This document shows positions 47,069 through 57,432 of a DNA stretch of 64,000 nucleotides, piece after piece. Source of the stretch: Synechococcus sp. (GTDB lineage Bacteria; Cyanobacteriota; Cyanobacteriia; PCC-6307; Cyanobiaceae); contig JBJBCN010000002.1 of assembly GCA_047285805.1 (NCBI GenBank), forward strand, positions 832,001 through 896,000. The letters run 5' to 3'. The translations under genes were made by a program, and so were the position numbers. Below the pieces are notes generated by a model that did not search any database, had not been told where the DNA came from, and was given only the letters and a program-made list of their open reading frames with translations. Each line of letters opens with the position of its first letter. Positions within the stretch are counted from its first letter, which is position 1.

Positions 47069-47151
47069 AGGGTTCTGAAGGATTGCGTACTAGCGATCCA
47101 GAATCGAAAAGAACGACAAGACTGGCAGATTAATCCACAACTAGGCCACTG

Positions 47152-48260
47152 GTGGGCTTTCAAAAGCTGGTTACATAAGCCAAAACCCGCCTCCGTGGCA
47201 GGCGCTGCAAGTGCCGGATTGGGCTCAGAAAAAAAGCGCTCATACTCAGAGCCACACTCCCCTCTGAGGACGGCAGTCAAGCCAAGCAGCAAAGAGTAGC
47301 TATCGGCCTAGCAGCGACGGCAATAGTACTAACCCACGCTGAAATTCAAGCACTAAGGCTTGATAGCGATATCAGGAGCAGCTTTTACTGCTGGAGCGGC
47401 TGGAGCAGAGAAGAATCCAAGCCACGACAACGAACGACAGATACCGAGGAGGAGTTTCTCCAGGCAGCTCACAAACTCCACGCACGGAAGGTGCGGCAGA
47501 AAGAGAAGAGGGATCTCAAAGCCGTTGTAAGACGGCAAAGAGAGCTGGCGAAAACGATGGAGCCCTGCACTGAACAAGCTTCAAGGAGAAAGGCTCACTG
47601 AAGGGTCGCTGCTGAAAACCATTCGATACCTTGGCGAGGGGAGCTCAGTGCGGAGGGAGACAGCTCTTGTTCTCGGGATGGTTGCTGGGGAGATCGGATG
47701 GGATCAGCGATCACTGAGAGAAGCAGGCTCCGACTAAGGGCGACAAATGCTCAGGAAGCGAGACATACCCTCTAACAGATCAATTGAGAAGGCCTTCGAC
47801 AAGTTGATGGAGTCGTCGCCTCACTGGGCACGCATTTGGGGCTTGGTCGAAATGTATGGAGCCAGGCCGAGCGCGCTGGGAACAGCAACACTTCGAGGGA
47901 ATTTCGTTCTGATCATTTCGGAGAGCAAGACGAATCGGCCACTAGCAGAAACCCCTATAAAAAGAGAGTGTAGATCGGTTCCAGTTGCACGAGCTGCCAG
48001 AGCCACCGGGGAAGAAGGATCGCTACTCGATCAGCACCAACTGCAATGCCGCTAGGCGAAGGTGCGGAATCGAGATCCCGCTATTCTCCCTTCGACTAGC
48101 AACAGCAATCTGGCTACTTGGAGCAGGTGTAGCCGCAGAACTCGCAGCCAAGCTGCTGGGACACAGCGGGGCAATTTTCAACGAGACCTGCACCGCTTGG
48201 ACTTCAGATGAGACGATTGTTGGGCTGATGGCGAACTACAAGCTCTTAGACCGGTTATTA
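47152..48260 (+). pseudogene. Tyrosine integrase remnant (limits approximate)
   Basis: N-arm LILRATLP...KQQRVAIGL...WSGW; YGARPS; SKT; FSLRLATAIW...AAKLLGHS...FNETC; broken by stops and frameshifts. Confidence 0.82.
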
Positions 48261-48781
48261 CCCCTCCGGGGGGTGTTCGCCTGGGGCTTTACGAGAACAG
48301 GCACTCAAGAATCCGGAGTGAAAACCTGTGACTCGCTCGCTGAGGCAAAAACCGCCCTGCCGGCCGGGTTGATGGCTTTGGTATGAAGTGATCGACCGAT
48401 TAGATGAGATGCCGAAGCAGTAGCGAACAGCACCGTGGGCGCCAAAGGCATTAAGAAGCGAGTAGCTGATGCAATTGACTAAGGAACCAGTGGAGTTGAT
48501 AGTGCCCTTAAGACAATTTGTGCCTTCTCAGAAGACGCGCGCCTAACCCAAAGCCTTCGTGATAGCCGGAAACCACCTGTCTAACCGCAACCCGATCAGA
48601 ACTGATCCCAACCTCATTGACACGCCGAAGCATGACTAAGCGGGGATGGAGGCACTCGAAGCCAGGTGCCCCTCCCAAAAAAGGAGGCCAGTCAATCCAG
48701 GGTTAGATGTCGCAGTCGCTACTCAATGGAACAGCGACCCTGCCAACGGCGATAGAGCCAGAAACAGTACAGACGGAAGCA

Positions 48782-49642
48782 TCATTCAATGACAGTGAAT
48801 TGGATATCAAACGGACCGGAATCAAAGGCTATGCAGCCAGCAGCATTAGTACATCCTTCATCTCCATTATTTTGGTAATACATAGTGGTCCCGTTGTTTG
48901 TTACCGTAAAGTTGGCCTTGCACTCAGTAGTAGATTCGGTGATCTCTATCGGCGCGTTGAGCTGGACTGTTCCCAACAGATAGGTCGCACCTGTGCACGT
49001 TGTTGACGATGAGTCATCAGCGATAAGGCCTAGAGAAGAGTCGAGGATATATCCAGTCATGGTACCGCTTGAGCTGCTTACGGAGCTGGTTGTTTTGCAG
49101 GTCTTTGGGGATGTATCAAGACCAAATGTATTCAGAGGAGCCTCAAATGTTTGAGCGGGTCCGGAGGTGGCAGATGTCTGATAGGTGCTTGTTGAGTACC
49201 AAGTATTGCCGTTACCCAGAGGTCCATATTCCGCCTGAATTTCGAAAGTCTTCTCAAATAGAAGCACAGCGTGTGTATAAGTTCCATTATCTGGGCGCTC
49301 ACCTTTGGAAAGCTCTACTGCTCCACCAGCAGCAAAAGAAACAGTCTCACTTCCATCAAACGTAAGTGAGCATTTTGTAAAATCTGGGGCTGAGCCAGCG
49401 GCGGCTGGAGCAGGGTCTGCCTTGCAGAGGCCCATCTTCATAACAGTAATTCCATATACTTCTGGTGTCCCAGCACAGCTGCCGACACCAGTCCCCCAAT
49501 TATTTTCAGCAGCGTAACCAGAGGCAGCCGGACAAGGAGTCATTGTTTGCGCCTTCGTCTTATCAAAAGTGGGAGTAAGAATGAGGAATCCGGCAAGACC
49601 TGCAATACCAGTCTTAAGAAGGTTGCTCTTGGTCATGATCAT
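48782..49642 (-). CDS. Secreted Thr/Ser/Gly-rich, Cys-containing hypothetical protein
   Basis: Signal-peptide-like N-terminus, 9 Cys, beta-strand-like patterning, C-terminal SGPFDIQFTVIE. Confidence 0.85.
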   Translation of the reverse strand: MIMTKSNLLKTGIAGLAGFLILTPTFDKTKAQTMTPCPAASGYAAENNWGTGVGSCAGTPEVYGITVMKMGLCKADPAPAAAGSAPDFTKCSLTFDGSETVSFAAGGAVELSKGERPDNGTYTHAVLLFEKTFEIQAEYGPLGNGNTWYSTSTYQTSATSGPAQTFEAPLNTFGLDTSPKTCKTTSSVSSSSGTMTGYILDSSLGLIADDSSSTTCTGATYLLGTVQLNAPIEITESTTECKANFTVTNNGTTMYYQNNGDEGCTNAAGCIAFDSGPFDIQFTVIE

Positions 49643-49681
49643 GGGCTTTAAGTGGATTTAGGTTGAGAAGTAACGTTGGAT

Positions 49682-50992
49682 CTAGGATCCACCAACTGAG
49701 TTAGTGAAATCACCTGATACCTTCTTGACTCGTTCAAGAAGTACCTCGTAACGACGACGAACCGGCTGGGTCATCTGTGCAATCAGGTTTTGCTTGGTGT
49801 TGTTCTTCGCATAGACCACAGGGCGGCCGGTTAGGCGAACGCGAATGCCGAAGTATGGACCAGGTTGGTTATCGATGTCGTTGTCTGAATCAACCGGATA
49901 GGCGGGTATTTCATTCGACGCCCACACCTCAAGGTTTGCGTGGGGGGTGGCCTGCCAATTTACCGAGCCCTCAAGACCGCTGTTGTCGCTGTGATGGCCG
50001 GTGTAATCCCAGTTGAAGCCCCGTACGTACATCGCCAGCTGCGGATAGAAGGGAAGTCGATAGCCCAGCTCTACGTCCCAGCCTGGGACAACCCCCTCCT
50101 GGTATTCGATGTCATTAATGACAACGTCTTTCCGTCCTGAGCCATTTATATACCAGTTATTGCGAAGCTCGAAGCTTTTCCAAAAACCCTCTGCACCAAC
50201 CCCCCAACGGGTATACGCCACAGGCTGTCCAGCTGTTGTCGAGTAGTTGGTGGTTGCCAGATCCCAGAAACCGTTTACCCCCACCATCGCTTCTTCCCCT
50301 AGGCGGTAGCGGCTACCGAGGCCCACGTTGACCTGAGGCTGAGCCGAGGTCTCAAGGGTTACCCGGGCTTGGCCAAACATCAGGCCCATCGGATCGCCGT
50401 CGTTGTCATAGCCCAGCGTCTTGAGGCGCATAAAGCTATCGAAGTAGCCCGTAAGATCGCTGCTTGATGCAGCGTTGAGACCAAGCGAGGTCTGCGCGAA
50501 GAAGGGGATCTTTTTGATCTGCTTGTTGGCGTAGTTCACGCCGCTGCTGATCAGGGTGCGGGTAACTTCGGAGTGGACCACTCCGCCAAGATCAACGCCA
50601 TTGCCATTGACCATCGCCGGCCCGTACTGAGCGGCGTAGCCGGCACCCTTTTGAACAATCCGCTCAAACAGATTGCGGGGTTGACGAACTTCTGCAGGCC
50701 CTAGACAAGCTCGAGAGCGGGGGTCGACGAAGACGTCGCACTTCCAGGGTTGGTACGCCAGCGGCTTTCCGAGGGTGATCGTCTTGCCTTCTATAGGCAA
50801 CTGGTCCTCGCTGATCGGAGGCTTTCCTTGCTCTGTCGATGACGTCTCGTTCAGTCCGAGTTCTGTGGCGGTCAGACCGTCCAGCTGTTTCTCGGCTTCT
50901 TCGGCTACAGCTGCAGTGCTTGCCGTCAGGATTAAGGGAGCAGCAATTAGCGCTCGACCTGACCGTATTAGGCCCTGAGACAGACGCAGCAT
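49682..50992 (-). CDS. Inverse-autotransporter (intimin/invasin) beta-domain protein with no passenger
   Basis: NVGLGSRY, MVGVNGFWD, RWGVGAE, LRNNWY, GWDVELGYRLPFYPQL, linker PVRRRYEVLLER; signal peptide from ATG 50992. Confidence 0.88.
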   Translation of the reverse strand: MLRLSQGLIRSGRALIAAPLILTASTAAVAEEAEKQLDGLTATELGLNETSSTEQGKPPISEDQLPIEGKTITLGKPLAYQPWKCDVFVDPRSRACLGPAEVRQPRNLFERIVQKGAGYAAQYGPAMVNGNGVDLGGVVHSEVTRTLISSGVNYANKQIKKIPFFAQTSLGLNAASSSDLTGYFDSFMRLKTLGYDNDGDPMGLMFGQARVTLETSAQPQVNVGLGSRYRLGEEAMVGVNGFWDLATTNYSTTAGQPVAYTRWGVGAEGFWKSFELRNNWYINGSGRKDVVINDIEYQEGVVPGWDVELGYRLPFYPQLAMYVRGFNWDYTGHHSDNSGLEGSVNWQATPHANLEVWASNEIPAYPVDSDNDIDNQPGPYFGIRVRLTGRPVVYAKNNTKQNLIAQMTQPVRRRYEVLLERVKKVSGDFTNSVGGS

Positions 50993-51115
50993 TCCAGGGA
51001 ACTCAAAAAGAATTCGCCTAAAAAAGCACAAACCCCAAAGCGAAGCCCACCCGCACGTGCAATTTGACAATCGAACAATCGAGCTTAATAAATGACCATT
51101 AAGCTGGGTTACGAG

Positions 51116-51403
51116 TCATTGCTTTTTGCATAGTTGACGAACAGTGCTCGTCACCAATAGTTGATCATCTTTAGTCGCTCCCTGTGGGAAGTGCATCTTC
51201 CAGGCCTCGGCGACCAGGGCTTCGCTCGCTCCCTCCAGGCGCAATGCACAGATAAGGGCGCCGGTTTCAAGATGCTTGATCTCTCTCTTGAGACTACGGA
51301 CCTCAAAATTGCCCAAAGGGGTGCCGTGCGCTAAGGGCGGCAAAAGCCAGAACTGACTGAGGAAAAGCAAAACTGTGGTGGGTCCGGTGAACTTCGTTCC
51401 CAT
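51116..51403 (-). CDS. Hypothetical exported protein
   Basis: 95-aa ORF with hydrophobic N-terminus ending LAHG. Confidence 0.5.
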   Translation of the reverse strand: MGTKFTGPTTVLLFLSQFWLLPPLAHGTPLGNFEVRSLKREIKHLETGALICALRLEGASEALVAEAWKMHFPQGATKDDQLLVTSTVRQLCKKQ

Positions 51404-51602
51404 AGGGAGTGCGCTCTGTCCTAAGCTGTCTAAGACCCAGTCGACTCTGCCTGCAAGATTTGAGCTTTTGGAGGCCAGCCATTACCCCTCCGGTGCTGTG
51501 TTCCCCTCGGGTATTACAAGAAGAGGGGCTCAAAGATCCAGGGCAAAATCTTGAATGGTTGATGGGCCAACTGGTGGCCTACAGCTTGGCTAGTTGGAGG
51601 AA

Positions 51603-52007
51603 TTAGCTTTTGTAGCATGCTGAGTACTGAATTAGTAAAGGCTTTGCTGGTTCGGTCCAAGATCCATCCCTGAACTCAGATTGCTGCAGGGTGGCGCTAG
51701 AGGGATCTGCTTTATTGAAGACATAGAACCACCTGTATGTCGGACTTGAGTTCGTGTATACGACTATTGATTCGGCGGAGTCTTTAAAGGGGAGTGTCTT
51801 TTCTAGGCCCCATTTATTGTTCGCAAGGTCATACTCTTGGTAAGAAGCGAATGGAATCTCTGGATCAACAATAATTCGCTCTTTAAGTATGAAGTCTCTT
51901 TCGTTTTCACGTTTGACCTCAAGCTCGCACGTCACGTCAAGAATCCGACTTGGAGAGCAGCCCAAAAGGGCAGCTCCAATCAGTGTCAGGAGTAAAAAGC
52001 ACTTCAT
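51603..52007 (-). CDS. Putative lipoprotein
   Basis: MKCFLLLTLIGAALLG-C lipobox. Confidence 0.65.
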   Translation of the reverse strand: MKCFLLLTLIGAALLGCSPSRILDVTCELEVKRENERDFILKERIIVDPEIPFASYQEYDLANNKWGLEKTLPFKDSAESIVVYTNSSPTYRWFYVFNKADPSSATLQQSEFRDGSWTEPAKPLLIQYSACYKS

Positions 52008-52208
52008 CAATCGACGATCATCAATCGACCTTTCCCGAGCTTGACGCAGTCTTATGCGAAAAGACAAGGGCTGGAAGCAATCGCGGCAGCCATCGCACTC
52101 AATTGATCACTGGCAGAGCAGCGATCAGAAGAAATCCAAGTAAGAATCTAAGGCCAGCTTCCAGTCTCCATTTGCATGACTCCGTCGGTCGTCGGGCTCG
52201 CTTGATAG

Positions 52209-52547
52209 ATGCTCCTGGCAGCCCTAGCTAGCGTCATGGTTGCCTCCTGCTACGACGGGGATACCTGCAGCACCCTCAACGGGGAACGGATCAGACTGGC
52301 CTGCATTGATGCCCCTGAGCTGCAAGGGCGGAGAGCCAACCCAGTACCCGCCAAAGCCTCAAGGGACTACCTGCGATGGCTGGTGATCGGCAGGACCGTC
52401 AACCTGCGCCGGATAACGACCGATCGATATGGGCGCACTGTTGGTGAGCTCTTCATGGGTGGAGTCAACGTGCAGCAGCAGATGGTGAGGAGTGGTTACG
52501 CAGCGATTTACTGGAAGTACGCAGACCAGTGCTCTTGGACCAGGTAG
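52209..52547 (+). CDS. Thermonuclease (SNase-like) family protein
   Basis: YDGDT, RIRLACIDAPE, DRYGRTV, MVRSGYA. Confidence 0.93.
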   Translation: MLLAALASVMVASCYDGDTCSTLNGERIRLACIDAPELQGRRANPVPAKASRDYLRWLVIGRTVNLRRITTDRYGRTVGELFMGGVNVQQQMVRSGYAAIYWKYADQCSWTR

Positions 52548-52648
52548 GTCCGAGTTCATGGGCAAGCCAAGCTCTGATGAAGGCAAGGCCTTGAATGGGC
52601 CCTCGCCTCACCAATTAGGGCTAGACCAAAATCAGACACGGAGAGGCT

Positions 52649-52795
52649 GTGGAACCACTCACCTATGGCGTCCTAATCGTGCTGTTCCTCTGGGCAGTAG
52701 CGGCGGTCATCCGCCAGAAGACTGCAAAGGAGCCAGACGCTTCCTTCGACGTCTTTTTTAGAGAAGGTGACAAGCACCCCATGAGTGACTGCTGA
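52649..52795 (+). CDS. 48-aa single-TM microprotein
   Basis: GGAG-like RBS, GTG start; MEPLTYGVLIVLFLWAVAAVIRQKTAKEPD... Confidence 0.45.
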   Translation: MEPLTYGVLIVLFLWAVAAVIRQKTAKEPDASFDVFFREGDKHPMSDC

Positions 52796-53354
52796 GCCAC
52801 CAAATAGTGCAGGCGTCTTTCGACCCGCGTATGAAAAGCCTGTCCGGATGTAATAACCAATACTTTCAGGATCTTGAATACGACACAATCAACCGAACCA
52901 AATCTTTAGAGGTCCACATTTGTTATTTTGGAGACATCACTCCACATGTCAGGCTTTATAAAAAGGAGACATCGCCTGACACGCAGAGGAAGGCGGTGGC
53001 GAGTGAACCAACCGATGGACGCAAGGTCGGTTGGAGCTCGTCAGGAAAATAGGTGGTTCGACCCATCCTTGCAATCGCTCCATAACCAAGGTCACATACG
53101 TTCAGGAGTCGACCGTTACATAGGTCATTGTCCGAGACGTGGAAGCGCTCAAGCCCCCCAACTAGACACTCGCCGCTACAGAGCAGTGGTTGGAGAGCTA
53201 TTGCCTGATTTCGCAGGCGTTGCCATTAATCCAATGGACGAGATGCGAACTGTCGCGAACCAAATGGTGTTCAGCCCGCCTTAGCCACCACCACATCCTT
53301 TCGCCGCGGCGCCGATGAAGCCGGGGGAGCTGTAGCGATTAAGCAGCCCTGTAG

Positions 53355-53660
53355 TCACCCAACCTTTATCTGATCCATTGCCCAGCACACCGAGGCACCG
53401 CCTGAAAACAGGCAAACCATGGTCTGATCAGGGTCAATGACTCTATAGGTAGAACCATCCGCGAAATTCTTCAGCCTTGCGTGCAAGTGGGCAAGGTCAT
53501 GGTCGGGATGTTCTTCGGTTTGCCTCCAGCCTGTGCTGGTCAGTCTTTCGATGGAGAACACGTTCGTGCTTGTGGAACGGATGCACAAGGTCGATCGGCG
53601 CTGCCGACTTGGGTAAAAACAACTGAATCTCCTTGGGATCACACCACCGATGGAGACCAA
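53355..53660 (-). CDS. Hypothetical protein (start uncertain)
   Basis: FSIERLTSTGW...DLAHLHARLK...DGSTYRVID. Confidence 0.5.
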   Translation of the reverse strand: MVSIGGVIPRRFSCFYPSRQRRSTLCIRSTSTNVFSIERLTSTGWRQTEEHPDHDLAHLHARLKNFADGSTYRVIDPDQTMVCLFSGGASVCWAMDQIKVG

Positions 53661-53777
53661 AACGGTGTCATTTGCATCAAAGCTCTATCTGTGGTGTGAA
53701 CTTGGTGAGTAGGTCCTGTCATTGGTTGCAGAAATTTATGACGTCATTACCTTGCGGTTCTCGCCAATCACGAGGAG

Positions 53778-53942
53778 ATGGCATTCGATCGAACAGATCC
53801 AACGCTTCGGGTTGTTCAGGCTGCCAAGGAGGCTGCCAGGGCAGTACTCAATGAGCAGTCCCCAAAGCTCACAGTGCTTGAGAAAGCAATGTGGCTAAAG
53901 CTCAAAGAAGAGCAGCAACAGGCAAATGACAAGGCAGCTTGA
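53778..53942 (+). CDS. 54-aa helical microprotein
   Basis: GAGGAG directly before ATG; MAFDRTDPTLRVVQAAKEAARAVLNEQSPKLTVLEKAMWLKLKEEQQQANDKAA*. Confidence 0.5.
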   Translation: MAFDRTDPTLRVVQAAKEAARAVLNEQSPKLTVLEKAMWLKLKEEQQQANDKAA

Positions 53943-54341
53943 ACTATGAACTGGCTGCTGGTGCTTGTGATGGGGACGATTGCTGTAGGAACAGTTATCG
54001 GAACGACGCTACCGGCCTTATGAGCTGCCTGTCCTTTCGTAGGTCGGAGCCCCAACTAGCCCCAGCGCCAAGTGGTCAAGCACTAAAAACATGTACCTTT
54101 TGAGCCTGGGAAGACGTGCTTCCTATGAAAAACCTTCGCTTTAGACGAAGAGAGGTAATCCCCGGCAGGTAGCTGGGACATCGGATGTGTTCAGCTTGCA
54201 TAAATACGAACATTCCCCCAAATCCAAATGGCCTAATGAGATTGATGCGTTTCTCTCCGTGAAGGCACCGCCTGGCCGGGACACCTATTTTGTACTGAAG
54301 CAAGATTTCCGCAGCCTCTTCTCCGTCTGCTGGGCGTTGCT

Positions 54342-54524
54342 CTAATCCTGTGGAAGTCTGGCTTCTCGCTCTCTCCGGGTCGGTCCGTAGTACTTACGAA
54401 TCGTGAGGGGATGATCGCCAAAGGATCGCTTCGCAAGAACCAAGGCAACCGCCTCGTTGATAGCCACAAAATGAATGCGCTTCTCCCCGCAAGGGGTATG
54501 AGCAGTTATGTCAAACCCGTGCAT
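54342..54524 (-). CDS. Hypothetical small protein
   Basis: 60-aa ORF with plausible composition. Confidence 0.35.
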   Translation of the reverse strand: MHGFDITAHTPCGEKRIHFVAINEAVALVLAKRSFGDHPLTIRKYYGPTRREREARLPQD

Positions 54525-54660
54525 TGCCTCTGGCGAGTTGAATCAATTCTCTTCTTAAGCACTTTCCTGCATCACGACAACAGGTTTACGAAAAAGTTCT
54601 CCTTCAGCTTGAAAGTGGAAGCAGGGCAGCGATCTTGGAGCAATAGCTACCAAAAGAAAT

Positions 54661-54909
54661 GTGATCCCCAGGACATGGGCGGTTTTCACTACTGCTTCTC
54701 CATCTGATCCACGAGAGCGTTTAACCGACCTTCGTCACCTAGATGTGACCAAGTTCCACAGAGACCAAGCCGAGCTGACTGGCTACACGCTGGACCGCTG
54801 GGATCTTCACGGTGTTCCCTGCGCCTGCTGTGAGTGCACTGCTGAGTACGAGACCCTGCGGCTGATGCAGATCGAGAAGAACAAGCAATTTCTGAGGAAA
54901 GAGGACTGA
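54661..54909 (+). CDS. Small Cys-motif protein (start uncertain)
   Basis: HGVPCACCEC motif. Confidence 0.5.
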   Translation: MIPRTWAVFTTASPSDPRERLTDLRHLDVTKFHRDQAELTGYTLDRWDLHGVPCACCECTAEYETLRLMQIEKNKQFLRKED

Positions 54910-54911
54910 CC

Positions 54912-55070
54912 ATGGACATTGAAGAGGCCGATGAGCGACTTGCTTCTGGGTGGCATGTCGATCCATCGGAGCTAAATCCCCAGGACAGTCCTCAGCGGCG
55001 GCGCTATCTCAAGACAGTCGATGGCTTCAGAAGTCCGAAGGATCTGGACAGCCAGCGTCAATCCAGCTGA
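54912..55070 (+). CDS. 52-aa microprotein
   Basis: Starts 2 nt after the previous stop with GAGGA upstream; MDIEEADERLASGWHVDPSELNPQ... Confidence 0.45.
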   Translation: MDIEEADERLASGWHVDPSELNPQDSPQRRRYLKTVDGFRSPKDLDSQRQSS

Positions 55071-55717
55071 AGAGCAGGAAGCAGGACGTCGAACAGCTTA
55101 TTTGTGATTCATCAGACCCATGGATTACGTAAAGGTGGTGTGAGTCCAGGCTTACCTAATCGCACATAAGCGCCTCTACCACCCTCCTCGCGACTGAAGA
55201 GTCGGTCATGGTGCTGTTATCGGTCTTGTTCATCGAGGGACTGCTCGAGGAGTGCCCCCGCCTCTTCCAAGGCTTCGGTCCGCCTTGCGATGTCAAGCTC
55301 CCGCTGATGAGCTTCTGAATAGAGCTGCAGCCTTTCCCCGTTCATCATCTCCGTGTAGGCGAGAGCTCTTGGCTTTGGAGTCTTCACGGGTCAGTCAGTC
55401 TGCTTCTCCCAGCGGTCACGCCGGATCTTGGTGCAGAGATCACAGCGACAACAAAGTCATCGCCCTTGGCACCAATGCAGTCCTTGAACCCCTCTTGCCC
55501 CCATCGGGTGTGGGCTGTGTTCGGCCACAACATGGCTAGGTCATCGTCGCTTGAAGCGGTATTCAGAATGACTGCCATCTCTGCATCATGCACATAGATC
55601 CGGAAAAGTGGTTGTATGAGACGCATTTTGCTTCCACAAACTTCAAGCCGAAGACCTAAGCGGAGTTAAAGTAGGGATTCGACGCTAGACACCACCTTGA
55701 CTCCGTGGAGCGCGTCA

Positions 55718-55790
55718 ATAAAAAGCCCCTGGTGTTCGACTCCCAGAGGCTCGGGTCTCCCATGACGCCGGCAAACCCACGCCGGTGCTA
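55718..55790 (-). ncRNA. Candidate two-hairpin small RNA ending in a terminator
   Basis: Minus strand: CACCGGCGUGGGUUUGCCGGCG hairpin, UCAUGGGAGACCCG linker, AGCCUCUGG...CCAGGGGCU-UUUU terminator. Confidence 0.45.
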
Positions 55791-55867
55791 AGCCAATTGA
55801 AGCGATGACAGCAGCTGTTGCAATCAGTATTTCTACGCGTCAAGCGTCTCAACGTGTTGATTCGGTG

Positions 55868-56086
55868 TCAGACAAAGTCTTTGTAAGAAGCTGAGCGGAA
55901 GTTTGTTGAGTAAGGAAACTGGTAACCAACTTCCATAAAGCTCAGAGATTCCTCAGCACGGTACAGACTGTCGACGAAGTGGCAGCTTCTTTCCTGATCA
56001 CATACAAGGAACTTTCCCTCAGCGATTCGGTCTATCGATGCTCCATGCGGAGTGGTGGTAATTCTCGTGCTTTTTGATACAACCAT
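55868..56086 (-). CDS. Small hypothetical protein
   Basis: 72 aa, ATG start; RIAEGKFLVCDQERSCHFVDSLYRAEE. Confidence 0.6.
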   Translation of the reverse strand: MVVSKSTRITTTPHGASIDRIAEGKFLVCDQERSCHFVDSLYRAEESLSFMEVGYQFPYSTNFRSASYKDFV

Positions 56087-57100
56087 TAGAAAGGCGCTAC
56101 AAGGACATAGCTGTCATGGCTTTGATCGGCAAAGGGATGCCGTATCAGTGAACACTTTTTTGAATCTTGATTGGTTTCTCTAGGCAAGAATCCCTAAGAC
56201 ATTGAATCGGTATTAGCAGCTACGCACTTCAATCAGAAAGATGAGTTATCGATGCGGCAACATCACTGATCGATACGATGGAAATCCTTTTCCTGCTGGC
56301 GATAATCACAGCCACTTCGCTGATGGGTCTCAAGATGACGCCAAGAAAGAGGCTCGACTAGATGTGTGTAAATCTGTAAGTGCTCGCCGAATGCAGACAC
56401 GACTCAAATAAAAGAGTGCCGTTCGCCTTTATGTGTAAGCAGAGCCACTCCCCTAGGGATAGCCAATCGGGAAATCCCCCCAGTAGAAGGTCCTCTCCTG
56501 CCAGGTTAAGTGCCATGGAGGGCCCCTCTTACATCGATCTTTCTTGCTTCTCAGCGGCAAAGTCGCTGGTGAACCATACGACCAATTACGGCCGCCTGAT
56601 AGACCTCAAGGCAATAAATAGAAAGCCAGTCAAAAGAGCCCGTAGTGATAACTATACAGACGGGGACTGGCGCACGTACAAATAAAGCCGCGCAATCAAG
56701 TTCTAACCGTGGTTAAGCCCGGTTAATAGTCGCGCCCGCCCATACACCGATTAATCCTGTTCACTGAGAGAGCTAGATCGAGCATTGACCTGCTCTTCAC
56801 GAAGCGCGTTGGTCGAACCACGCAACTGAGCTATACAGCCGCCAGGAGTCCGACAGGCAAAAGCGAGAGGCCTACAAGGACCAGAGCCACCCCAGTGCCA
56901 GGTGAGTGGATGTTGGCAGTGAACCAGGACCTCTGGGCCATTGCTGTCGTCACTTCCACCACTTTGATAGCAATTGCGGCTGATAGTCGAATTTTTCTGT
57001 CTGCGGCGCCGTGACTTAGGCGACTGACGCAGTAATTAGGCCACTTCTAGGCCACCTTGACTCTCTAAGGCTTCACGAATCCAGTACACAAAGGGCAATT

Positions 57101-57194
57101 CGGAACTCACCTGCCATTTCTGTAACGAGAGGTCTATGACGTCTAGGCCGCAGAGCTGCAGGAGCTCGTCGACGAGCTGTCCCCAGCCACCTAA
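57101..57194 (+). repeat. Right copy (attR-like): displaced, decayed hslO 3' end
   Basis: Encodes [28 protein letters not shown], with a 2-bp insertion and CAG>TAG. Confidence 0.93.
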
Positions 57195-57273
57195 CGGCTG
57201 AAGAAGTGTCCTCAGGCCATCACTAGACACGCTCGCCCGGAGCTGTAACAAGGTTGTTCTGCAGGTGCTGGCG

Positions 57274-57432
57274 ATGACCTGGTTTCCCCACTGCCTGAAC
57301 TGCAGTCACTTCTGGCTCAGCAGCTCAAACCAAAGCGGCGGCTGCCACCTCTGGGCGATCACGATTCCGGCTGGATCCGCACGGACCCTGCGCTGCCACA
57401 GCTGGATTCGCCTGGGGAAGAAGGCGAATTAA
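57274..57432 (+). CDS. 52-aa Cys/His microprotein
   Basis: MTWFPHCLNCSHF...GGCHL...LRCHSW. Confidence 0.5.
   Translation: MTWFPHCLNCSHFWLSSSNQSGGCHLWAITIPAGSARTLRCHSWIRLGKKAN

Follow-up and report, generated by a model that had tools for sequence, protein, structure and literature searches.

Can the barrel of an inverse autotransporter, the type Ve secretion class of intimin and invasin, serve a separate protein when it has been left with only a short tail of its own? A stripped-down natural test case is found in Synechococcus sp. (assembly GCA_047285805.1, contig JBJBCN010000002.1, positions 832,001 to 896,000 of the forward strand); this 64,000-nucleotide stretch is called the window below, and coordinates are those of the window unless a genome is named. 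Two genes lie head to tail there on the minus strand: a barrel gene (49682..50992) and, downstream of it, a gene for a smaller protein that we call the partner (48782..49642). An earlier note on this DNA took the two as a split inverse-autotransporter system, in which the barrel exports or anchors a separately encoded passenger. We find that the pair is a real, strongly conserved, self-contained two-gene module across dozens of genomes, and that the partner diverges far faster than the barrel. From analogy and from sequence comparison, we give about an even chance to the reading that this conserved, passenger-less intimin-type barrel exports the Sec-exported, hypervariable downstream protein, holds it at the cell surface, or does both.

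The barrel gene encodes a 436-amino-acid (aa) protein, counted from the ATG; an upstream TTG start would give 462 aa. By eye, its N-terminus reads as a Sec signal peptide (aa 1-30, 50903..50992, minus strand), with a basic stretch, a hydrophobic stretch and a final A-V-A site, and the N-termini of relatives align there. The following region of about 110 residues (50576..50902, minus strand) is presumably periplasmic. It is modelled as low-confidence helices, matches no LysM or other Pfam domain, and carries the Cys pair C85/C96, a motif conserved in relatives. Next comes the IAT_beta domain (PF11924; residues 140-415, 49748..50575, minus strand), which takes in the periplasmic helical turn and the first part of the linker that threads the pore, and which matches the Pfam profile at E 3.2e-58 (198 bits, with the cut-off at 22.3). 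R421 closes the linker motif, PVRRRYEVLLER, whose last six residues (E-V-L-L-E-R, aa 416-421; 49730..49747, minus strand) overlap a short modelled strand. The stop codon follows 15 residues further on, and these residues form the C-terminal tail (49685..49729, minus strand; conserved motif G-x-F-x-N-x-x-x-G-x) that we propose as a partner-docking peptide. Thus, the Cys pair, barrel, linker and early stop that the earlier note had read from the letters all hold up, and the hidden Markov model (HMM) search that it suggested against the IAT_beta family gave the match above.

In an alignment of 17 barrels, P410, V411, R413, L418, E420 and R421 of the linker region are invariant, as are F429 and G435 of the tail, which stand behind a spacer of variable length. 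An AlphaFold2 (AF2) model built on the 17 relatives gives a confident barrel, with strands between residues 165 and 388 of high predicted local distance difference test score (pLDDT), followed by a helix (399-407) and a strand (419-423); tail residues 427-436, beyond that linker strand, have pLDDT <50 and are disordered in the monomer model. The three best Foldseek matches of this model in the PDB are invasin (4E1T) and intimin (4E1S and 5G26), with E 1.9e-13 to 5.7e-13 and template-modelling (TM) scores of 0.74-0.76 on the target, while the next-best barrels reach only E ~1e-5. The family profile likewise finds the sequences of intimin (E 2.4e-12) and invasin (E 8.8e-11). Judged by profile and model, the protein is a genuine IAT_beta-family barrel without a passenger; the fused C-terminal passenger typical of inverse autotransporters is replaced by an end 15 residues past R421. 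A report on intimin describes a strand at the end of the linker that joins a small extracellular sheet required for stability (PMC13078405). Strand 419-423 is the counterpart of that strand, so the 15-residue tail is probably not part of the barrel fold itself; if the topology is that of intimin, it would lie outside the cell.

The partner begins exactly 39 bp downstream of the barrel (spacer 49643..49681, minus strand). It is a 286-aa protein with a predicted Sec signal peptide read from the sequence (aa 1-31, ending T-K-A; 49550..49642, minus strand). Residues 1-31 have pLDDT <50, and a hydrophobic N-terminus followed by A-x-A-like sites is common to the family alignment. Its mature part is 46% Thr, Gly, Ala and Ser, and the protein contains 9 Cys, in line with the Cys count and Thr/Ser/Gly-rich composition noted earlier. 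It closes with a conserved C-terminal strand, SGPFDIQFTVIE (48785..48820, minus strand), with P277 and F278 invariant. The last residue is Phe or Tyr in many relatives, reminiscent of the C-terminal signal of outer-membrane proteins; the window's partner ends in Ile-Glu. Across the family alignment, C37, C56, C73 and C91 in the N-terminal half are invariant and residues ~59-73 form a conserved core, which follows a Y-x-[IV]-x-x-[YM]-x-M-G-[LF]-C-like pattern that is also present in the window's partner; between residues 126 and 217, there is not one invariant column. The window's partner also fits the rest of the family description: members are ~260-340 aa long, begin with a signal peptide, carry four conserved Cys in their N-terminal half and close with a G-P-F strand. 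Its AF2 model is all-beta (pLDDT 75, predicted TM score 0.72) and least confident in the variable middle.

The partner family is large and without a name. At E ≤ 0.001, it comprises 872 clusters (50% identity representatives), 541 of them at E ≤ 1e-10. The best 150 of the 872 representatives are stand-alone proteins of 204-354 aa, apart from a few fragments and one 498-aa protein. In a sample of Cyanobacteriota, the partner was found in 5 of 13 genomes of the family Cyanobiaceae vs none of 287 genomes from 37 other families. No match to the window's partner was found in Pfam (E up to 0.1), NCBIfam or PHROGs, and Pfam searches with 15 family members returned nothing over the cut-off, the one sub-threshold match being to WWE (E 0.0052). 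The nearest ESM Atlas clusters are unnamed, and two of the three nearest are labelled Pseudomonadota. Two leads from domain labels, DUF4382 (31% of the members of one ESM Atlas cluster, score 0.91) and DUF3060, were unsupported by hmmscan and dropped. Searches with the fold gave no match at E ≤ 0.001 with Foldseek against the PDB or among the viral models of BFVD, no significant relative, Ig-like or other, in an exhaustive VIA-align comparison with 48,161 chains (best Z 4.4), and a best E of 0.44 for the profile against PDB sequences; these blanks are no proof of a new fold. The 498-aa representative (P0116) carries the partner domain at residues 264-496 behind ~260 residues of Gly/Asn-rich repeats; it has neither a barrel nor a Pfam match, its junction lacks a signal peptide, and no other protein among the best 150 matches is clearly longer than the usual form.

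Does the pair recur elsewhere? The same genome holds a second pair ~100 kb away (G000:C2:984840-986662; L001 991-3326; L112), in a ~7 kb stretch with a guanine-plus-cytosine (GC) content of 0.44-0.54. Its barrel open reading frame (ORF) runs to 462 aa from an upstream GTG, and a 303-aa partner begins 36 bp downstream; the barrels of the two pairs are 77% identical and the partners 24-26% (E 3e-20). We then surveyed a sample of 201 genomes of the same family, Cyanobiaceae, with the partner profile and IAT_beta. The partner profile matched in 24 genomes, and strong IAT_beta matches occurred at 22 loci in 19 genomes, 21 of which had a same-strand partner directly downstream; at the exception (G117:C47), a divergent look-alike lies downstream (L040). 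A wider survey, in which the barrel alignment was run against one genome per species of all bacteria and archaea and neighbours were checked by HMM, yielded 77 loci, all in Prochlorococcus, marine Synechococcus (including RCC307, at 77% identity) or Vulcanococcus. A partner-family gene lies directly downstream in 72 of the 77, and in one the contig ends at the barrel. The remaining four (L040, L075, L089 and L091) have a downstream signal-peptide look-alike of 237-299 aa with the same core and C-terminal pattern and few Cys. In all, a family member or look-alike follows the barrel at 76 of 76 loci with downstream DNA. Given the second pair and the 72 of 77 loci, the pairing is far beyond chance, and the gene-neighbourhood pattern foreseen in the earlier note is borne out.

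Other layouts were seen as well. Several loci read barrel-partner-partner, and Prochlorococcus marinus MIT 9201 (L072; NZ_CP138977.1:200204-208172) has three tandem pairs on one strand, with a different tail class and partner type in each. A draft genome that is 79% complete (G048:C10:38467-40210) has each of the two genes broken across two frames, the barrel match being interrupted by a TAA; this is either joint decay of the module or an assembly error. No third gene recurs in the 77 loci; the commonest neighbour, an adenine phosphoribosyltransferase-like ORF by reading, on the opposite strand, occurs in 18. The barrel found no match by tblastn in 50,697 phage records, and a scan of viral contigs found no relative of the module.

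These surveys bear on the simplest account of the locus, namely that the pair is a single inverse-autotransporter gene broken by mutation, with the partner as the former passenger. The shared strand and the 39 bp gap would suit such a break. The partner has its own start and signal peptide, however, and the split form is found in all other loci surveyed as well as in the second copy in the genome. All uncut barrel ORFs in the surveys are 369-462 aa long, none with a passenger. No fused barrel-partner ORF occurs among the best 150 of the 872 representative matches, nor was one found among proteins of 502-2000 aa, the latter being weak evidence. A broken gene is thus effectively refuted, as the earlier note had argued.

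The two genes evolve very differently. Where barrels are 80-90% identical, their partners have a median identity of only 31% (73 pairs). At the DNA level, comparison with two same-genus relatives and with the genome's second copy gives 72-94% identity over most of the barrel gene (63-69% in two bins), while from the last barrel bin onward, that is, from the tail, identity falls to 25-45% in the same three comparisons. Homology by blastn stops at window positions 49722-49728, which is 1-7 bases inside the tail. The linker/tail junction is therefore where conserved DNA gives way to variable DNA. On either side of the module, the flanking DNA differs from that of the relatives, which puts the module at a different position from one genome to the next.

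The tail thus belongs, by position, with the variable side, and its variation is structured. Over all loci, tails fall into discrete classes, such as the F-x-N-R-A-K-G, G-W-x-A-R-V-K-T, F-Q-V-R-G-G and F-T-V-R-V-S-A-Q-G types, and each class occurs with its own type of partner C-terminus. A Cys-poor partner subclass of 237-302 aa, which the HMM misses or barely detects (L040, L075, L089, L091, L056, L058, L098 and L100), always accompanies Trp-bearing tails of the G-W-x-A-R type in those eight loci. Across 82 non-redundant cassettes, tail similarity correlates with similarity of the partner body (Spearman 0.63) and of the partner's last 14 residues (0.49); at 75-90% barrel identity, the values are 0.64 and 0.65. 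Its correlation with similarity of the barrel body is 0.19. The periplasmic N-terminal region behaves in the opposite way, with a Spearman correlation of 0.85 with the barrel body and of ~0 with the partner. The tail tracks the partner and the N-terminal region does not, so any specificity of the barrel for its partner would sit in the tail and not on the periplasmic side.

This difference is one point at which display can be set against a periplasmic role, in which the partner would remain periplasmic or line the inner face of the outer membrane and work there with the barrel as an accessory (e.g., as a plug, chaperone or envelope tether). The partner's Sec signal and four invariant Cys suit a fold formed in the periplasm, the pore is predicted to be filled by the barrel's own linker, and the barrel keeps a conserved N-terminal region with a Cys pair that has no known function. 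Nevertheless, it is that region whose similarity is unrelated to the partner's, while the tail, predicted to be outside, correlates with it at 0.64. Partner identities of ~30% beside barrels that are 80-90% identical would also be more typical of exposed proteins. Altogether, we consider a purely periplasmic pair unlikely, though it is the alternative that we would take most seriously.

The closest described system is ZirT/ZirS of Salmonella enterica, in which zirS lies 26 bp downstream of zirT, an invasin-like barrel gene, in an AT-rich island, and ZirS is a 276-aa protein with a Sec signal that is reported to be secreted only if ZirT is present (PMC2270342). A two-partner model for inverse autotransporters was proposed by Heinz et al. 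(PMC4943183, section 11). Our pair shares with ZirT/ZirS the order of a barrel gene and a Sec-signal protein gene on one strand with a short gap (39 bp here), a partner of ~280 aa (286 here) and a lower-GC island. It differs in several ways. ZirT, at 660 aa, is described as having ~290 residues past its barrel that are said to resemble ZirS and ZirU, while the barrel here keeps 15 residues and so has no extracellular domain for its partner to resemble. No relation to Ig-like domains, or to entries of Pfam, NCBIfam or the PDB, was detected for the partner here, which is hypervariable; the module is multi-copy in some genomes, and it belongs to a free-living phototroph. ZirS was shown to need its barrel for secretion; for the window's partner, such a dependence is a prediction.

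Comparisons with other systems are more partial. With intimin and invasin (type Ve; PDB 4E1S and 4E1T), the barrel has in common a 12-strand-type barrel, a periplasmic helical turn, and a linker with a conserved Arg and an exit strand, and the signal peptide read by eye would be a further likeness; it lacks their fused Ig-like or lectin passenger and LysM, and its 15-residue tail ends the protein. Type Vb two-partner secretion (TpsB/TpsA, e.g., FhaC/FHA) likewise pairs neighbouring genes for an outer-membrane barrel and for a cargo that Sec exports on its own, but the barrel here is not of the Omp85 type and has no POTRA domain, and the partner has no TPS domain (the only Pfam match of the pair at E up to 0.1 was IAT_beta). 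In chaperone-usher pili, donor-strand complementation lets a short amphipathic strand complete or extend another protein's beta-sheet, which is the mode of contact that we propose for tail and partner; here, no usher or chaperone is present, and matches of the partner model to pilins are insignificant (fimbrial entries, Z 2.5-3.0). The best reading of these likenesses is that the module would be a minimal ZirT/ZirS-like, two-partner variant of type Ve with a new partner family and a swappable tail-plus-partner cassette.

Such barrels have been reported from cyanobacteria before. Heinz et al. mention cyanobacterial groups with "invasin_beta-only" proteins (PMC4943183, sections 9-10), and a survey of cyanobacterial barrels lists some with intimin/invasin domains in five Prochlorales and nine Synechococcus strains (PMC4365693, section 15). 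The proteins of both reports are very probably the barrels described here. The earlier note's description of a "distinct" display system was therefore overstated, given these reports and ZirT/ZirS (PMC2270342; PMC4943183). Searches of the PubMed Central Creative Commons and bioRxiv literature yielded no account of the partner family linked to the barrel, of how large and hypervariable that family is, of a barrel whose exterior is reduced to a tail, or of the tail classes, although the supplements of PMC4943183 and PMC4365693 may list the barrels.

How might the pair work? Both proteins would be exported by Sec, after which the barrel would insert in the outer membrane, the linker threaded through its pore and the tail exposed outside the cell. 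The tail may then dock the partner as a short peptide in beta-strand form, probably through strand augmentation that involves the partner's conserved C-terminal strand; this strand-complementation idea goes back to the earlier note and is indirectly supported, in that tail classes follow partner type. The partner would cross the outer membrane aided by the barrel, or by the barrel during its assembly, as reported for ZirS and ZirT, and would stay docked. Its variable middle would face the environment and could be diversified by cassette exchange, possibly under pressure from phages or grazers.

It is also conceivable that the barrel serves as an anchor only, in which case the partner would be displayed or secreted by another outer-membrane route and then held by the barrel via its tail. 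A narrow, plugged pore and the tail classes fit this arrangement, as does the occurrence of several partners per barrel. Yet no other export gene accompanies the pair in the 77 loci, and ZirS secretion is reported as strictly ZirT-dependent (PMC2270342). We therefore regard an anchor without a role in export as rather improbable.

Several observations weigh against export or display by the barrel, or against the tail as the docking site. A 12-stranded barrel whose pore is filled by its own linker would, as modelled, offer no obvious route for a folded, disulfide-bearing protein. The lack of detectable Ig-like similarity in the partner removes a relation that ZirS and ZirU have to ZirT. Some complete or near-complete genomes with a single barrel gene also hold orphan partner genes at a great distance from it (G018:C4:125734-126609, G018:C5:416981-417721 and G128:C1:1051577-1052434), and partners may thus not depend strictly on a barrel. 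The C-terminal type of these orphans elsewhere accompanies the tail class of the single barrel in the same genome, but that class is the commonest, so the agreement says little. The tail correlates with the whole partner and not specifically with its C-terminal strand (0.63 vs 0.49). Reduced to two states, the tail and partner-end classes conflict in 11 of 82 cassettes; one of these is the window's pair, in which an F-x-N tail meets a partner whose last residue is Glu. In a FastTree phylogeny of the barrel bodies, the tail type switches at least 21 times; a tree-corrected test on 9 independent contrasts at supported branches was not significant (median p 0.125), with the partner end type changing the same way in ~6, the opposite way in ~1, and showing no difference in ~2. 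Finally, the tail adjoins the last conserved stretch of the barrel, so that recombination that swaps the partner drags the tail along, and linkage alone could give the correlations.

Carried to its end, this last point means that the two proteins need not touch at all: the barrel gene would be only a homology anchor beside a recombination hot spot at which variable surface or secreted genes are exchanged, and the tail would vary because it lies beyond the anchor. The sharp border of DNA homology at the linker/tail junction, the repeated changes of tail type on the barrel-body tree, the orphan partners and the non-significant tree-corrected test are all compatible with this. On the other hand, an anchor of this kind would be expected beside assorted cargo, while the downstream gene is of the same family or a look-alike in 76 of 76 loci, and barrels are kept intact though they have no evident role alone. 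The discrete tail classes are also kept across partners that are only ~30% identical, which counts against pure linkage and argues for selection on the tail itself, and a single barrel-intrinsic role for the tail should yield one consensus rather than several. Weighing these, we think it quite improbable that barrel and partner make no contact, and we retain export and/or surface display of the partner by the barrel as our preferred explanation.

A bolder form of the display reading can be put forward tentatively, as one that we hold to be possible but on balance doubtful. Here, the barrel's 10-residue C-terminal donor strand would make the pair a plug-and-play display system in marine picocyanobacteria, in which tail-plus-partner cassettes swapped by recombination would give a near-unlimited surface repertoire that sets susceptibility to phages and grazers. 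If true, no smaller system for two-partner secretion and anchoring would be known, and the most abundant cells of the ocean would have a major source of surface diversity that has gone unrecognised. No phototrophs in the sea outnumber Prochlorococcus and marine Synechococcus, whose strains differ in their susceptibility to phages and grazers; these differences trace largely to variable genes for the cell surface that lie in genomic islands. The module is a widespread, multi-copy, hypervariable surface candidate of this kind that has had no family name, with a partner family of at least 872 clusters at 50% identity. Should the tail indeed dock the partner as a strand, the pair would in addition provide a small scaffold for displaying proteins on cyanobacterial surfaces.

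The pair lies inside a low-GC island of ~10 kb, roughly 47100..57400, with a GC content of 0.527 vs 0.64 in the rest of the window; by gene, the partner (0.48) is lower than the barrel (0.561). No terminator-like site was found in 48500-51400, and promoter-like sites around the pair are at chance level only. The earlier note had placed a dead integrase nearby. Two overlapping frames on the plus strand (47747-48055 and 47985-48386; together 47747..48386) do give weak integrase matches, to Pfam Phage_integrase at E 0.075 and to a PHROG integrase at E 0.008, and we list them as a possible integrase remnant; no firm integrase match was obtained, and to that extent the claim is only partly upheld.

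Upstream of the barrel, a 95-aa ORF with a hydrophobic N-terminus (51116..51403, minus strand) is of uncertain membership in the module. It is covered by blastn matches to two same-genus genomes (window 49722-51334 to G098 and 51151-51307 to G125), while no match lies beside the genome's second pair and none recurs in the Prochlorococcus loci. Co-conserved with the barrel in those two genomes only, it may be a lineage-specific third gene. Further along the island, a 154-aa ORF (51603-52067, minus strand) has an internal start followed, by eye, by a lipobox-like L-L-G-C, and a 112-aa ORF (52209-52547, plus strand) encodes a staphylococcal-nuclease-like protein with a hydrophobic N-terminus (Pfam SNase, E 1.9e-13).

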